The notes below the pieces were generated by a model, which worked only from the letters and a program-made list of their open reading frames with translations, was not told the DNA's origin and did no database searches. From positions 556,992 through 620,991 of the forward strand of contig MU006104.1 of the NCBI GenBank assembly GCA_010093705.1: 64,000 nucleotides of DNA. The letters are read 5' to 3'. This DNA comes from Patellaria atrata CBS 101060. Its lineage: Eukaryota. Within the stretch, counting starts at the first letter, position 1, and each line of letters starts with the position of its first letter. Below, piece after piece: positions 1 to 7,500 of this stretch. The position numbers and the translations under genes were made by a program.

Positions 1-213
1 TTTCCACGATTATCTATACTTGCAATTGAGATCCTCTCAATTCCAGCAATGAGCGATGAACCAGAACGAGTGTTTTCAGCAGCTCGTCGTACGGTATCAT
101 GGGAAAGATCACGCTTAAGTTCAAGAGAGTTAGAACATACTGAATGTCTTAAACATTGGGCAAAACAAAAAAATTTATTGAAAGGTTCGTACGATTTGTT
201 TAGTTTCACCTAA
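1..213 (+). CDS. hAT transposase, C-terminal dimerisation domain (5'-partial)
   Basis: Open frame 1-213: FPRLSILAIEILSIPAMSDEPERVFSAARRTVSWERSRLSSRELEHTECLKHW. A possible intron at 185-229 would move the stop to 258. Confidence 0.85.
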   Translation, partial: FPRLSILAIEILSIPAMSDEPERVFSAARRTVSWERSRLSSRELEHTECLKHWAKQKNLLKGSYDLFSFT

Positions 214-350
214 TGGCTACTGATCTCAGACACACGTAAAGGTACAGATCACGTCTGAGTGCTACCAACAGCCCTGGATAGCTAGGCAAAGCAGAACACC
301 GAAACGCCAGAACGCTTAAACGCCAAAGAATACTTCGTACGAAGCTCTGC

Positions 351-882
351 TCAACCAATGATTATAGCATTTTGGGGAGTAGCCCCTCATCGTCATCCAG
401 CACAATAGCATTCCCAGGGGCGGTGCCGTCAGCTCCGTCAACCCCTGAACCAGGTCCAAGCACCCTGGCTCCTTGAGCAGGCTTATCTGGACCACCAGCT
501 CGTACGGAACAGCGTGCTGTATGGTCGCGCCATTTGCAGTTGGCGCATGTTCCGCCAAAGTGTCCCTCAGCGCGGTGACAACTAAGGAAGGGACGGAAAT
601 CTCTCGTACGACAAGCCGCACAAGGATCAACGTCACCTCCACGAGACTGGATAAGAATCCCATTGACATATGACTGCCTATGAGATCCAATCTGCTCGGT
701 GTGATAGAGTCACGTACGAACTCAACATCAACACCTCCACCGACGGCCAGAAGTGCTCTATTCTGTGGGCTGTGACACCACGGAGCCAATTGCTGCTGTG
801 TTACGAGTAGCACCGGGTTGCGGTTCGCGTGAGCGGCAGCCGTGATCGCTGGGTTATAGAGAACTACTTGCGTATTGGCCAT
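351..882 (-). pseudogene. DUF3716-like Cys-rich protein carried in the transposon, apparently with two 1-nt frameshifts
   Basis: The N-terminus MANTQVVLYNP...VDVEFVRDSITP continues after a shift near 698 as EQIGSHRQSYVNGILIQSRGGDVDPCAACRTRDFRPFLSCHRAEGHFGGTCANCKWRDHTARCSVR. A second shift near 385 restores TPQNAIIIG*, which mirrors GTAPGNAIVL. A canonical 5'UTR intron lies at 931-884. Confidence 0.75.
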
Positions 883-959
883 ACTATAGTCTTATTAGCC
901 TTCGTACGATAGGTTTAAGCTGAGTACTTACACTTTGAGTTACTAAAATCAAAGATTGA

Positions 960-1012
960 GAAGGAGAGAAGAAGAGAAGAAGAGAAATTCAAAAAAAAGA
1001 TGTATTTTATAC
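960..1012 (-). promoter_or_regulatory. Putative core promoter of the cargo gene (TATAAAA followed by a CT-rich tract)
   Basis: The minus strand reads TTTGTATAAAATA near 1016-1004, then a TTCTCTTCTC tract, upstream of the intron donor GTAAGT at 931. Confidence 0.5.
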
Positions 1013-1244
1013 AAATTGGCAGGTAGGCAGGTGGGCCAGTAGACAGGTGGACAGGCAGGCACGTAGGCACGCCCTCGTGCCTTCTATCTTAGAACAGCTA
1101 TAGATGTTATTCATAGCTATATAATCCCTTCGTACGAAGAGTATCTTTATTTTAATTAAATTTCTAAGAAAACGATAATATTTTAGTTGAATTCTAAAGA
1201 ATATTAAAAAATCTTAAAATGCCAAGAGTATTGTTAAGGTATTA

Positions 1245-1317
1245 TGATATTCGATACAATACCGATGAAATACCGAGAATACTAATACCTTATCGATACG
1301 GATCGTTGGCCACACTG
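1245..1317. repeat. Transposon subterminal repeats and terminal inverted repeat
   Basis: Clustered AATACC(G), AATACT and GATAC units at about 1250-1300, then the TIR-like GATCGTTGGCCACACTG at 1301-1317. The predicted 8-bp TSD is TCCACATC (1318-1325). Confidence 0.6.
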
Positions 1318-1397
1318 TCCACATCCGATGGCTTGTACCCGACACTTTAACAATACAGTACGGCGATTTTATACTCAAATAATTTGAAGCTTCTGTG

Positions 1398-2886: not shown

Positions 2887-4571
2887 GGAAAATGGTACAG
2901 TATCTTCAACCAAGACATTCCCTTTGGGATATCGAGTTGGAAGCTTTGACATCTGACGTTGAGGGATTTAGTGCACGTGGATCATAGCGCCGGATCGACA
3001 AGCACGCCTAAACCTCGTGCCAGCTTAGGATATTGATGCACGGAACTTGCAGGAGCCTGGCAGCTCTTCCTGCTTTTCTTTGATACTCTCTGGGAGATGT
3101 CTTGGTACCTGTGTTAGATATATTGCAGGATCCTTCTCTTCATCGTCGTGTGCTTCCTGTGCCTCCTGTGCCTCAATAATGTACGGGTTCACCGTGTTGG
3201 GTCCGGTAAATCGGCCCAATTGCATCGGGCGAAAGAGGTGAAGTTTCCGATCCGTGCCACTTTGGACGAGATCGGGTACAGGTAACTTCATGCTCAACAA
3301 CAACAACTTCTTGCCCAGATGATAGGAATATTACATATTCAGGTCGGAATGCAACGGATGGCTTTCCAAGTGTTTCCGAACATCCTTTCATGAAATAACC
3401 AGCTGATGAAGGTGCTGATTCGAGCGCTTATGGTTGTATCCGTGACAAAGAGTCTGATGTAAGCAGGTTGCAGTAAATACTAGCTCCAAACTCCGCCGAG
3501 TTATAAAGGAAGAATTACCGTACCTTTATGATACCTTAGTTGATATAATAAGAAAGCTACGATTGCCTCAGGATCGACCTTCTGTCACACCTCGGTCTTC
3601 TATCCCTTTGGAATTTCTCTGGTTCCTACGGCCAGGGCCTTGTGTGAAGTTAGGTTATTTGACGTTAACAGGACTATAAATAAACGAATTCGGTCCCGCA
3701 TCCGGTTTTTTTGAGGTTTATAGGATCGGAGGAGTGCCAGCAACCTAATACGTTGAACCCAAATCCTTACCGAGTTATGACGGCAGTCGGATGTGAACTT
3801 GGTTCTCATTCAATACTGTAACCATAAACTGTCTACAGCAACACTTGGAAGCTTAGAAGATATTCCTATCCAGCAAAGCATTTAAGCCAAGCAGAAAGAA
3901 TATTCTCCTGCAGCATCGGCACATTTCACTAGCATTAGTTCTGCTGCATATTAAGGATCACTGGCTCACTGCAGATCCCTAACTCACTCTGCTGCCTGCA
4001 AATACGTACGCTATTATTCCTCCCTCCCTCCCTCCCTCCCTCCATCCCTCCCTCCTCTCACTTCCAGTACTTTCCTGTACCTCCATTCACGTCCGCCGTG
4101 GGTCTCCGTCATCTGTTCCCGTTTTAGCAAACCTAATACCCTAAGCATACACAACAATCCAAACCCTTCAAAAAGTTGATCCGCCCGCTGCGGCTTGTCC
4201 CTTCTCTTCTCCGACATCTACCTAAAGCCCCTCCTTGGCCCTCCACGCTTTATCCTCCTCCCTCTTGTTTATTATTTCTGATGTCACGGCTATAACTTGC
4301 TTACTTGCCTCCTCCGATAAGTTCCTCTCAAATCTCATTCTCGCCTCGAAACCAGACTCATTATACTCTTGACTTTCAATTGAGACCATCTCTCGGAGGT
4401 TTATCTCTCGATCCCTTCACTAAGGCGGAAATCCGGCACCGCTCGGTTGGCGTAGAAGAGATAAACTATTTTTTTTTTGAGTCAACCGTGGTCTGCGGCG
4501 CTCAATCCATAGTTTGGTCATCTTCTCTACCCATTTCGAACTTACCTCAGGTTCATTGTTCATAGCCCACC

Positions 4572-7500
4572 ATGTCTTCCCTCAAGAAAGCACTCCACAA
4601 ACTCAAACCCCACCACAACAGCAACCCTGCCAGTGACGACGAGTCCGGGACGACTACGCTAGCATCACCCGCAACAGGATCTACCCCCACACTAGATTCT
4701 CCTCAAAGAGCCTCTTCTCCAAAACCTTCCCCTCGCAACAGTCACCAGTATTCGCGCAATAGTGGGACTTTCCCGCGACCAAATGGATCGGATTCACCTC
4801 GTGGTGGTCGCACCAGCAAGGACATCATCCGTAGCAGCGGCACTTTCGGACACCGCAGTCGCAATAGCCTTGGTTCTCGCAGCCCTATCCGTGGCCTTCG
4901 GGAGAAACTACATATTGGAGGAGATGATTCATCTGGATCCGAGGACCTCCCTCTCAACAGAGATGGGGAGCCCATGAGCAAGAATCAACAAAGGAAACAT
5001 GAGAGACAAGCTTCACGGGAAGCTAGAAGGAAGGAAGTTGAGGAGAAAGAGGCGGAATTTCTGAAATTTCGCCAGGAAGAAGAAGAGCGTGCTGCTCGGG
5101 AGGAACCGCCAGAAGCCAAAGCTTGCTATGGAATGTTACCCGTCAACCATTATGCTGGCGAGTGGACACATGCAGAGCGTACGATTCTACAGGGAATATC
5201 CGCGAAGGATGTTGGCAAAGAGCTGTTTTTCCGAGCTCGTATCCATCATCTCAGGAAACTTAGTTCTCACTTGGTCTTCTTTGTTTTTCGACAGCAAACT
5301 GTCACCATTCAGGGTGTCCTGCACGAACATGACAATATTTCACGCTGGATGATGTATTGGGCAGAACATCGAAATGTCGAGGATGTCGTCCTAGTCAAGG
5401 GTGTAGTTCAGGAGGCAAAATCCAAACAAGGCGAGGTCACTGGTGCCACAATCCACGACGTTGAGATTTCAGTTCATGAAATGCATGTCGAAGCATCAGT
5501 CACAGAACCGCTACCTTTTACGGTTGCAGAAGCTGAAATTACCCAACAGGAAGTAGATCGTGAGCAAGATACCCGTGTCAAAGTTTCCGATAGGACTAGA
5601 TGGCAAAACCGAGTTTTGGATCTCCGGACATCGGCTGCACAAGGGATATTCAGGGTCCAATCTGGTATTGGACACCTATTCCGGGAATACTTGGATACTC
5701 AAGGTTTTATTGAAATTCATACCCCGAAGCTTCAGGGAGGTGCCACCGAATCTGGCGCCAGCGTCTTCAAGATTGATTACTTTGGAAGAGGAGCATTCTT
5801 AGCTCAGAGTCCTCAATTAGCCAAACAAATGAGCATTGCTGCAGATTTTAAGAAGGTTTATGAGATCGGCGCTGTTTTCCGAGCAGAGAATAGCAACACT
5901 CATCGTCATTTGACCGAGTATACGGGCCTCGATCTGGAAATGGCCATAGACGAGCATTATCACGAAGTCTTGCGTACCCTAGACAACACATTCAAGTACA
6001 TCTTCGCTGGGATTTATAAGAAGTATAGAAATGAAATAGATGCTGTCAAGAAGCAGTTTCCCCATGAGGATTTAGTCTGGCTAGATGAGACGCCAAGAAT
6101 TCCATTCAAGGAAGCAGTTCAGATGCTGAACGAGACTGGCTGGACGGATGAGCATGGCAAACCACTACCGTTGAATGAGGATCTTGGCACAAGGGATGAG
6201 ATTCAACTTGGTAGAGTTATCAAAGAAAAGTACGGAACGGATTACTACATCCTAGACAAATTTCCAACCTCTGCTCGACCTTTCTACACTATGCCTGATC
6301 CGAACGATCCGGAATACACAAACTCCTTCGATATCTTTCTACGAGGTCAGGAAATTCTGAGCGGTGGCCAGCGTATTCATGACACCAAGACGCTGCTTTG
6401 TAAGATGGAAAGGATGAAGGTTGACCCTATGTCCATGGAAGAATACATCAACGGCTTCCAGTGGGGTGCACCGCCTCATGGAGGTGGTGGTATTGGTTTA
6501 GAGCGTATGCTCATGCTTCTCCTACAACTGGGTGATATCAGACATGGTTCCATGTACCCGAGAGATCCCAAGAGCTTACCCGCCCGACCAAAAGTCACAC
6601 AACTACGGCACCCAGAAGCTAGCACAATGCATCCGCCATGGGAGAACCAGGACCGTGCCGCAGCAGGGATCGACTTCCAACCTATTGAGAAGCTTATTGC
6701 CAACTATGGTGATGCCTCTAACACCTCCTGGCTCGAGCCGCGTACTCAGATCTGGCGTGATGAGTACACTGGCGCTGCCATTGGTTACGTACCTCAAGAT
6801 GGCTTCGCTATTACTGTCGGTGACCCTCTCTGCCATAAGAGCCAGTATCTGAAGACCATCACTGGTTACCTCCGATACGTCAAGAAGGAGCGTAATCTTA
6901 AACCCCTCTGGCTCCTCGTCGGAGCAGACGTTGAGGAAGTTCTAGCAACCAAGTTCAACTGGCGCACGTTCTCCGTCGTGGCAGAGCAGCGCCTAAACCC
7001 AGCCAACAACCCGGCACTTTCGGATCAGGATATCCAGCGCAAGATCCGCCATGCAGAGCGTGAAGGCGTTAAGCTCCACGATATCCCGCTCGGCACTCCA
7101 GTTCCCAAAGAAGTGCGAGACAAAGTCGACGCGCGGCTCAAGGACTGGCTCGCAAACCGTAAGGGCAAGCAAGTCCATCTCACAGACCTGCATCCGTGGC
7201 AAGATATGGAGCACCGTCAGTACCACTACGCCATCGACTCCTCTGGTACCGTCGCGTCCCTGGTTGTCATGGCGCAGCTCTCTCCCGAGCACGGCTGGCA
7301 AGTCAAGTACAGTCTCGACTTCCCCGGTGCTCCAAGCGGTACCATCGAGATGATTGTTACTCACGCCCTGAAGGTTGTCGCCCAAGGCGGCGCTACCAAT
7401 GTCACGTTCGGTGGTGGTGCGAGCAACAAGTTCACCGTAGGGCATAACTTGAAGGGCGCCAAGGTCAAGGTGCTCAGCAAGGCATATCACGCTATTGCCA

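Follow-up and report, generated by a model that had tools for sequence, protein, structure and literature searches.

The first 1317 nucleotides of the stretch analysed here (64,000 nucleotides of Patellaria atrata CBS 101060, GenBank assembly GCA_010093705.1, contig MU006104.1, positions 556,992 to 620,991 of the forward strand; hereafter "the window") make up the 3' portion of a fungal hAT transposon, which carries a gene for a small DUF3716 protein (PF12511) and a dense array of the palindrome CGTACG. The same gene and the same word recur together in at least six otherwise unrelated classes of mobile elements, which suggests that they form one portable module, and the word itself is under selection. 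At a probability of roughly one half, we propose that each such element is kept active by its own DUF3716 protein, through binding to YCGTACGR.

The CGTACG array of the window

All eight palindromes reported for this element by an earlier sequence-only reading lie where that reading had placed them (Table 1), giving a density of 7.6 sites per kb between positions 88 and 1136 with spacings of 100-228 bp. Two sites (88 and 188) fall in the 3' coding part of the transposase, one (336) in the intergenic spacer, three (501, 605, and 713) in the DUF3716 coding sequence, and two (903 and 1131) upstream of the DUF3716 gene. The sequence-only reading had also assumed intronic sites, but none of the eight is intronic: the site at 713 is coding, in Phe-Val-Arg codons of DUF3716, and the adjacent change of reading frame is a 1-base frameshift. 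The form TCGTACGA is found at five of the eight sites (188, 336, 605, 903, and 1131), and TTCGTACGAA at two (336 and 1131).

The whole window contains 24 CGTACG words, compared to a mean of 8.11 in 100 dinucleotide-preserving shuffles (standard deviation 2.85, maximum 15). At the rate of the other 62.7 kb, 0.35 sites would be expected in positions 1-1317, where eight are observed (Poisson P 3.8e-9), and the most enriched 5- to 8-mers of this segment are CGTACG and its sub-words. That the palindromes are confined to the transposon, as had been claimed, holds for the visible part of the element, as the window starts inside it and the element ends at about 1317. The remainder of the window (1318-64000) contains 16 sites. 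This is roughly double the number that the shuffles give for the entire window (8.1, maximum 15), a mild background excess.

Density and borders of the array across DUF3716 loci

An alignment of 36 DUF3716 homologues was used to scan JGI metagenome contigs, which may include collapsed repeats. The scan yielded 605 candidate stretches, 390 of which encode DUF3716 relatives, and the best 80 were taken as loci (L numbers below). Classified from 1 kb on either side of the DUF3716 gene, with at least 3 CGTACG per kb counted as dense, 43 of the 80 loci are CGTACG-dense, 14 resemble products of repeat-induced point mutation (RIP), 15 are CpG-decayed, and eight (L004, L021, L025, L044, L045, L050, L051, and L068) fall outside the thresholds. 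The co-occurrence of DUF3716 and CGTACG across fungal transposons, which the sequence-only reading had proposed as a test, is supported by this set, with over half of these loci dense, clusters ending near the element ends, and at least six unrelated element classes represented.

Over all loci and the window, the clusters hold 903 sites in 125,087 bp (7.22 per kb) vs. 100 sites in 566,887 bp (0.176 per kb) outside them. The packing runs across the element interior and halts sharply close to the element ends: L002 has 17 sites inside its 3,336-bp element and two in the 13,603 bp outside, and L055 has 25 inside and one in the 16,529 bp outside. In L002, sites are absent from the outer 150-500 bp, where other short repeats sit. 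Some contigs are nearly saturated with the word, with 41 sites in 4,992 bp in L013, 57 in 7,379 bp in L035, and 45 in 6,447 bp in L028. A further arrangement is seen in L042, where a 12-site cluster contains a tail-to-tail pair of DUF3716 copies within 300 bp of each other (3176-3598 on the plus strand and 3893-3648 on the minus strand).

After removal of redundant assemblies by their spacing signature, 30 clusters with a total length of 75.9 kb remained. These contain 552 sites, or 7.27 per kb (range 5.1-13.2), and the density of the window array is typical of this family. From the dinucleotide content of the 75.9 kb, about 15 occurrences would be expected, compared to 555 counted, and seven other CpG-containing palindromes occur 2-23 times each. 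This comparison with other words matters because the clusters were defined by CGTACG itself.

Form of the site and spacing

The flanking bases extend the core to YCGTACGR, with a T before the core in 66% and a C in 20% of the cases (symmetrised). On the sense strand of 15 open reading frames (ORFs) with 273 sites, T precedes the core at 178 and A follows it at 205, and the full TCGTACGA is found at 139. These mirrored flanks indicate two-fold symmetric recognition of double-stranded DNA. They are difficult to reconcile with a function at the RNA level, in which the self-complementary UCGUACGA in transcripts would serve RNA-RNA pairing, an RNA-binding protein, or the evasion of RNA silencing. 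The word is indeed self-complementary and mostly located in transcribed parts, and sites are missing from the outermost 150-500 bp of hAT elements, as such a function would allow. Still, it also occurs in spacers between convergent genes and upstream of DUF3716, and the CpG-directed decay described below shows that the CpGs matter as DNA, so that we regard an RNA-level role as very unlikely.

The sites are more evenly spaced than random placement would produce. The mean distance is 145 bp and the median 135 bp, with a coefficient of variation of 0.565 compared to 0.879 +/- 0.023 for random placement, and in 2000 simulations the value never dropped below 0.807. The distribution of pair distances has weak peaks near 150, 300, 420, 555, and 700 bp, approximately multiples of 145 bp. 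This corresponds to about one site per nucleosome-sized stretch and may point to a link with nucleosomes.

Carrier elements belong to unrelated transposon classes

Carrier classes were assigned by Pfam searches of the large reading frames. The hAT elements (zf-BED, Dimer_Tnp_hAT) comprise the window element, of which only the Dimer_Tnp_hAT end is visible, and L002, L008, L032-34, L038, and L041. Ty1/copia elements (RVT_2, gag_pre-integrs, rve) were identified at L017, L018, L028, and L035, and Ty3/gypsy elements (RVT_1, RNase H, integrase, chromodomain) at L013 and L058. L055 and L066 are Crypton-like (NDC10_II), and five further loci have the site pattern of L055. The remaining carriers are an element with an rve-type integrase (rva_4, Clr5; L025), an OrsD element (L053), and an unclassified helicase element (L027) with a DEAD/Helicase_C/OrsD ORF of 1,463 aa and a GCR1_C ORF. 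The latter locus (377-832 and 2971-7359), in which the OrsD/DEAD-box/Helicase_C protein, the GCR1_C protein, and DUF3716 are encoded in a CGTACG-dense region, could not be assigned to a known transposon superfamily.

The L002 family is a true hAT: its terminal inverted repeat is 17 bp long, and L005, L014, and L022 are flanked by perfect 8-bp target duplications; no target duplications were found at L002, L055, or L034. A hAT C-terminus lies within about 1.5 kb of the DUF3716 gene in 18 of the 80 loci, as judged by tblastn with the 70-aa fragment of the window. The copia contigs L017 and L035 close on themselves, with end overlaps of 127 and 99 nt and units of 7,139 and 7,257 bp, respectively, and the DUF3716 gene therefore belongs to the repeating copia unit.

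Only the DUF3716 gene and the motif are common to the carrier classes. Since the same gene and word sit in DNA transposons and retrotransposons with unrelated enzymes, the module appears to be portable. In the DUF3716 tree, the element classes are interleaved, and with six of the 33 inner branches starred, its resolution is too poor for counting captures between classes. An exhaustive search also returned a few long gene models that join the family to DDE_1 (P0107) or NDC10_II/GCR1_C. We take these for read-through models of adjacent transposon genes and not for true fusion proteins, and a word-index search found no fused longer forms of DUF3716.

In a hAT element, the sites might be taken for subterminal transposase-binding repeats similar to the AAACGG repeats of Ac, given that short repeats bound by the transposase are a known feature of hAT ends. 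However, copia, gypsy, Crypton-like, and other elements, whose enzymes are unrelated, are also filled with the word, it spans the interior including the ORFs, and it is absent both from the last 181 bp of the window element and from the outer part of L002. Because the transposition enzymes differ and the word avoids hAT termini, it is not a transposase site, and we consider this explanation highly improbable.

Selection on the word and its decay

Selection acts on the CGTACG word, as seen from codon choice, conservation between relatives, and loss from dead copies. Synonymous-codon shuffles (500 for each ORF) predict fewer sites than are observed in 18 of the 19 transposon ORFs, with z values of 4.7-18; for instance, 41 sites are observed vs. 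6.2 expected in a copia pol, 27 vs. 3.5 in a gypsy pol, and 12 vs. 0.6 in the hAT ORF of L008. Sites inside transposon ORFs occupy all three frames. In the nine flanking ORFs used as controls, 0-2 sites were counted, with z values of at most 2.0, and two transposase ORFs that lie outside the DUF3716 elements on the same contigs are similarly poor in sites, with none in a Tc1-like ORF in L055 and one in a DDE_1 ORF in L001.

Individual sites are also old, as their positions are conserved between diverged relatives. Of the 26-40 sites per element in copia pol pairs with 57-59% protein identity, 13-16 occupy exactly homologous nucleotides in both members, hAT pairs with 41-47% identity have 4-7 of 7-10 sites in common in aligned columns, and a gypsy pair at 34% identity has two. 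Between L008 and L002, which are 13.8% different with a balanced substitution spectrum, 15 of 17 sites are kept, compared to about seven expected (P 8e-5).

A different picture emerges for mutated copies. L014, L022, L029, and L060, with a GC content of 0.35, differ by about 11-13% from L002. C-to-T and G-to-A at CpA and CpG account for more than 80% of the changes, and of the 17 sites in L002 they retain two, three, seven, and zero, respectively. In the CpG-decayed loci (15-16, from one assembly set: L040, L043, L046, L048, L052, L054, L062, L064, L067, L071, L073, and L077-L080), the CpG observed/expected ratio within the element is 0.02-0.3, and every former CGTACG now reads TGTACA, which is present at similar density; these TGTACA words are the ghosts of former CGTACG sites. 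Contigs with host genes in the same assembly set have CpG observed/expected ratios of 0.67-0.76, and the host of this set thus has a strong, transposon-targeted, CpG-specific mutation process. With the word conserved in L008 and depleted in the RIP-mutated and CpG-decayed copies, live lineages keep it and dead copies lose it.

These observations also bear on the possibility that the enrichment is due to chance, base composition, or a mutational by-product. Although the clusters were defined by the word itself, which would favour such an explanation, the low probability of the window array, the excess over the dinucleotide expectation in the 30 clusters, the counts above synonymous shuffles, and the positions conserved at 41-59% protein identity all oppose it, and RIP and CpG decay destroy the word and do not create it. 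We therefore give this explanation practically no weight.

The DUF3716 protein

The members of this compact, well-conserved family consist of an N-terminal region, six conserved cysteines, and an acidic low-complexity tail ending in an NPIVL-like motif. The Cys spacing is C-x2-C-x10-C-x10-C-x2-C-x8-C, compared to C-x2-C-x6-C-x5-12-C-x2-C-x6-8-C for the Gal4-type Zn2Cys6 cluster. At E <= 0.1, the window protein has no match to Pfam Zn_clus and no VANC homology; its only Pfam matches are DUF3716 and a sub-threshold match to Agouti. All of the 64 homologues listed carry PF12511. AlphaFold models residues 30-125 with a predicted local distance difference test score above 90 and the tail as disordered. 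Nine Foldseek rows against the PDB at E <= 10 include eight chains of Gal4/Hap1 zinc clusters, although with non-significant E values of 3.9-9.6, which we treat as a lead only.

The gene is under purifying selection, with a ratio of nonsynonymous to synonymous substitution rates of 0.06-0.32 in eight of 11 pairs; of the others, two are saturated and one contains a stop codon. The family is large: an exhaustive profile search retrieved 1257 clusters (50% identity) at E <= 0.001, including 123 at E <= 1e-30, almost all of them 100-270 aa long. The named DUF3716 members come from classes that we take to be Dothideomycetes, Eurotiomycetes, and Sordariomycetes.

A proposed protein-site module

As at least six unrelated classes have the same gene and the same word, the simplest account is that the gene product reads the word. 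The first part of the module would be the small gene for the DUF3716 protein, with its six-Cys domain, acidic disordered tail, and NPIVL-like end, and the second part the YCGTACGR sites (mostly TCGTACGA), which occur about every 145 bp across the element interior in coding and non-coding sequence alike. The protein would act on the palindromes of every copy that carries them, probably as a dimer in view of the two-fold symmetry of the site, and a bound element would stay transcribed and accessible, with the protein acting as an activator or anti-silencer. The dense, quasi-regular array covers the whole element and not just its promoter or ends, suggesting a role at the level of chromatin. The copy in the window would depend on an intact copy elsewhere, for example the gene for P0001 (see below), since its own DUF3716 gene is frameshifted. 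We infer the binding by DUF3716, the dimeric mode, and the activating or anti-silencing effect from sequence data.

Functional information on the word is available from the Dothideomycete Pseudocercospora fijiensis. According to the accessible part of that study, a 19-bp element with TCGTACGA in the Pfcyp51 promoter increased from one to six copies, expression rose at least 3-fold, the effect was validated by promoter swap, and the authors ask whether transposons are involved (PMC6637983). The CGTACG word has activating activity, then, in a fungus that belongs to the class from which the closest named relative comes. Together with the acidic tail of the protein, these data lead us to favour activation or anti-silencing.

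The same promoter supports a different explanation, in which a host transcription factor reads the palindromes as dispersed enhancers and DUF3716 is a cofactor, an adaptor, or an antagonist. The wild-type Pfcyp51 promoter has a single copy of the 19-bp element, additional copies increase expression, and thus trans-acting activity exists in a host promoter context (PMC6637983, accessible part). A host factor would also agree with the 16 sites in the non-transposon part of the window, where about eight would be expected for the whole window, and none of the structural or sequence searches (Foldseek, VIA-align, PDB sequence, ESM Atlas) ties DUF3716 to the word. However, it would leave unexplained why the same small gene, under purifying selection, accompanies the word in at least six unrelated classes, and why the transposase ORFs outside DUF3716 elements in L055 (Tc1-like) and L001 (DDE_1) have no site and one site, respectively. 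In addition, 7 sites per kb in coding sequence is far above the usual use of enhancers. We consider a host factor unlikely, but it is the alternative to be taken most seriously.

Alternatively, DUF3716 might bind the palindromes in order to restrain or mark the element, be it for copy-number control, self-targeted heterochromatin, or the exclusion of competitors. Element-encoded repressors are known in other transposons, and near-nucleosomal, quasi-regular spacing would suit a coating repressor as well as an activator. However, the DUF3716 protein has an acidic disordered tail, a feature more typical of activators, and a self-silencing kit would be hard to spread over six element classes. Moreover, the sole functional datum for the word is activation (PMC6637983, accessible part). 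Restraint is accordingly improbable, clearly more so than a host factor.

Several observations weigh against binding and activation by DUF3716. Foldseek against the PDB gave no match at E <= 0.001 for the full model and none at E <= 10 for the domain-only model, and a wide VIA-align search found nothing at Z >= 2; the best match of the PDB sequence search had an E value of 0.55, and the ESM Atlas returned one row at 0.80, within noise. A host activator would account just as well for the P. fijiensis result. All loci were found via DUF3716, so that the co-occurrence of gene and motif was ascertained from one side only. In L001, a DDE_1/Tc5-type ORF (786-2858) has a single site, and immediately upstream of it are a DUF3716 gene (29-755) and a 6-site cluster; this is a nested insertion or else a capture so recent that sites had not yet spread. 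Module-bearing elements are still RIP-mutated (14 of 80 loci) or CpG-decayed (15 of 80). Finally, NCU05718 of Neurospora, a putative DUF3716 protein, counts on both sides. In favour of binding, the recombinant protein attaches directly to double-stranded telomeric DNA without an annotated DNA-binding domain (PMC4650311, accessible part), and a Fusarium DUF3716 protein has been called orthologous to it (PMC10776026, accessible part); against it, the repeats bound are TTAGGG and not CGTACG.

The mutated loci also limit what the module could achieve. A simple form of protection against RIP is contradicted by the 14 heavily RIP-mutated loci, in which sites were destroyed, and CpG-directed mutation is not reliably prevented either, with 15 loci having lost every CpG, those of the motif included. 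As 29 loci are decayed, any protection is incomplete and at best partial.

A broader version of the proposed binding and activation by DUF3716 is possible, and we advance it only tentatively. Here, the module would be a class-independent "self-marking" kit, in which a zinc-cluster protein coats any element that bears the palindrome about once per nucleosome-sized length and either shields such elements from heterochromatin or methylation or activates them. The kit would have moved repeatedly across DNA transposons and retrotransposons of the Pezizomycotina, its carriers would then have evolved dozens of sites within their genes, and stray sites might have been co-opted as host enhancers, as in the azole-target promoter of the banana pathogen.

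Anatomy of the window element

The anatomy suggested by the sequence-only reading, a transposon that encodes a DUF3716 Cys-cluster protein, was correct: a hAT end is followed by a DUF3716 gene on the opposite strand (Table 1). The transposase frame is open from the first base and ends with a stop codon at 211-213; the earlier part of the hAT gene, like the element's 5' end, is located upstream of the window. The DUF3716 gene starts with an ATG at 882-880 and ends with a stop at 369-367.

Table 1. Features of the hAT element at the start of the window
Feature	Position	Strand	Basis
hAT transposase 3' end, C-terminal dimerisation domain	1..213	+	PF05699 Dimer_Tnp_hAT, E 3.1e-12, 46.5 bits vs. cut-off 21.4
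CGTACG array, eight sites	88-93, 188-193, 336-341, 501-506, 605-610, 713-718, 903-908, 1131-1136		Word count
DUF3716 gene	367..882	-	PF12511, E 1.8e-12, 47.4 bits vs. cut-off 22 (match 367-700)
hAT subterminal region and 3' terminus	1137..1317		No CGTACG; ATAC-core repeats; end sequence
Presumed 8-bp target-site copy (TCCACATC)	1318..1325		hAT 8-bp rule; partner outside the window

This copy of the DUF3716 gene is broken by a 1-base frameshift near 695-700, and its Cys-cluster domain (500-655) is intact within its own frame. The two frames each match a portion of P0001, the best database relative, an intact protein of 174 aa that is 96% identical and for which one source names Patellaria atrata CBS 101060. 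A paralogue from the same fungus is 72% identical. An intron at 646-716 (71 nt, GTACGT donor) was considered and rejected: homologues translate straight through this segment ("VEFVRDSITPEQIGSHRQSYVNGILIQSRGG"), and the window copy therefore has a frameshift and no intron.

In the last 181 bp of the element, which lack CGTACG, short ATAC-core repeats are found at 1238-1299. The terminus at 1308-1317 reads ...GGCCACACTG, or CAGTGTGGCC on the minus strand. It is similar to CAGCGTGGTTTTCAATA, the 17-bp inverted repeat in the related L002 family; the matching 5' repeat lies outside the window. The position of the element end at about 1317 agrees with a public contig of run X1, which stops at 1318, and with a fall of the word depth from about 5-6 to about 2.4 there. 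No other copies of the element were found by blastn of positions 1-1400 against the remainder of the window.

Two short public contigs match the 3' part of the element. A 156-nt contig of run X1 consists of 102 unrelated bases followed by a match to approximately the last 50 bp of the element (window 1260-1309, three mismatches), and another element with the same terminus, a deletion derivative or a miniature inverted-repeat transposable element, is probably present in the genome. Run X2, from another study and labelled as another organism, contributes one 155-nt contig that is identical to positions 1133-1287 and covers nothing else in the window; the transposon might be present in a second host, or the contig might stem from cross-contamination. 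Run X3 gave no match, and neither X2 nor X3 is informative on habitat. The neighbouring genes in the window are ordinary and include a questin-oxidase-like gene and a class II aminoacyl-tRNA synthetase gene, about 520 bp upstream of which lies a (CCCT)n-like microsatellite (about 4019-4050).

Implications

To our knowledge, little is known about how transposons counter host silencing outside plants. The module described here offers a testable system that consists of one 8-bp word, one protein of about 170 aa, and natural "on" (motif-dense) and "off" (RIP-mutated or CpG-decayed) copies. One kit for DNA transposons and retrotransposons, with dozens of sites within their reading frames at nucleosome-scale spacing, would represent a new kind of spread; we know of no described transposon-encoded regulator with either cross-class use or sites selected into reading frames. 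If the proposed binding is true, it would give a role to DUF3716, a domain of unknown function of which this subfamily alone comprises the 1257 clusters mentioned above, and the compact protein-site pair could be used to target chromatin in fungi. The word also provides a simple sequence signature for locating such elements in fungal genomes and a candidate explanation for a known promoter variant that affects fungicide sensitivity.

Comparison with known systems

In the literature searched, we found no description of DUF3716 together with a CGTACG array and no fungal sequence-specific counter-defence system of transposons. Several known systems nevertheless share individual features with the module.

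Transposons with short repeats that are read by an element-encoded DNA-binding protein are familiar. hAT elements carry short transposase-binding repeats near their ends, such as the AAACGG type of maize Ac, and PIF/Harbinger elements need a second, non-catalytic Myb-like protein. In those systems, the sites sit at the ends and serve one enzyme family, in contrast to CGTACG, which is absent from the ends, is found with unrelated enzymes, and has DUF3716 as its putative binder.

A DUF3716 gene in a transposon has a precedent in REP9 of Zymoseptoria tritici, an IS3EU-type class II transposon with two DUF3716 genes, for which changed expression of REP9-1 led to a pycnidia phenotype; the accessible part of the paper reports neither a DUF3716 function nor a motif (PMC8232023). 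As in REP9, where the DUF3716 genes lie beside an integrase-like transposase, L025 is a similar rve-type element with DUF3716. The Pfcyp51 promoter repeat of P. fijiensis is similar in its 16-20-bp unit with the same palindrome TCGTACGA at the core and in that more copies give more transcription. In contrast to the transposon-wide arrays, its copies are in tandem in a host promoter, no factor is known to bind it, and no link to DUF3716 was made. Accessory genes of fungal DNA transposons also include those for TET/JBP dioxygenases, which are thought to counter DNA methylation (PMC12730594). These encode an enzyme, are reported for DNA transposons only, and have no cognate motif array described in the accessible part of that source.

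The closest parallel, and the one drawn by the sequence-only reading, is VANC of the Mutator-like VANDAL elements in Arabidopsis, which binds its own motifs and causes methylation loss throughout the element (Hosaka et al. 2017, PMC5735166; PMC10398659; accessible parts). Of that analogy, the pairing of protein and motif is supported, given the 43 dense loci and at least six classes, and simple protection from RIP does not. Both systems have an element-encoded accessory protein that is not a transposase and a short motif enriched in the same element, and the pairing is equally tight. The protein families are unrelated, so that the DUF3716 kit is an analogue at most, and binding and hypomethylation are demonstrated for VANC, whereas both are putative in the DUF3716 system. 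The targets differ in their layout as well, VANC targets being non-coding and often tandem repeats and CGTACG being dispersed at about 145 bp and embedded in coding sequence. Finally, VANC systems are confined to sub-families within a single superfamily and have diverging motifs, whereas CGTACG is one invariant word in at least six element classes, including retrotransposons.

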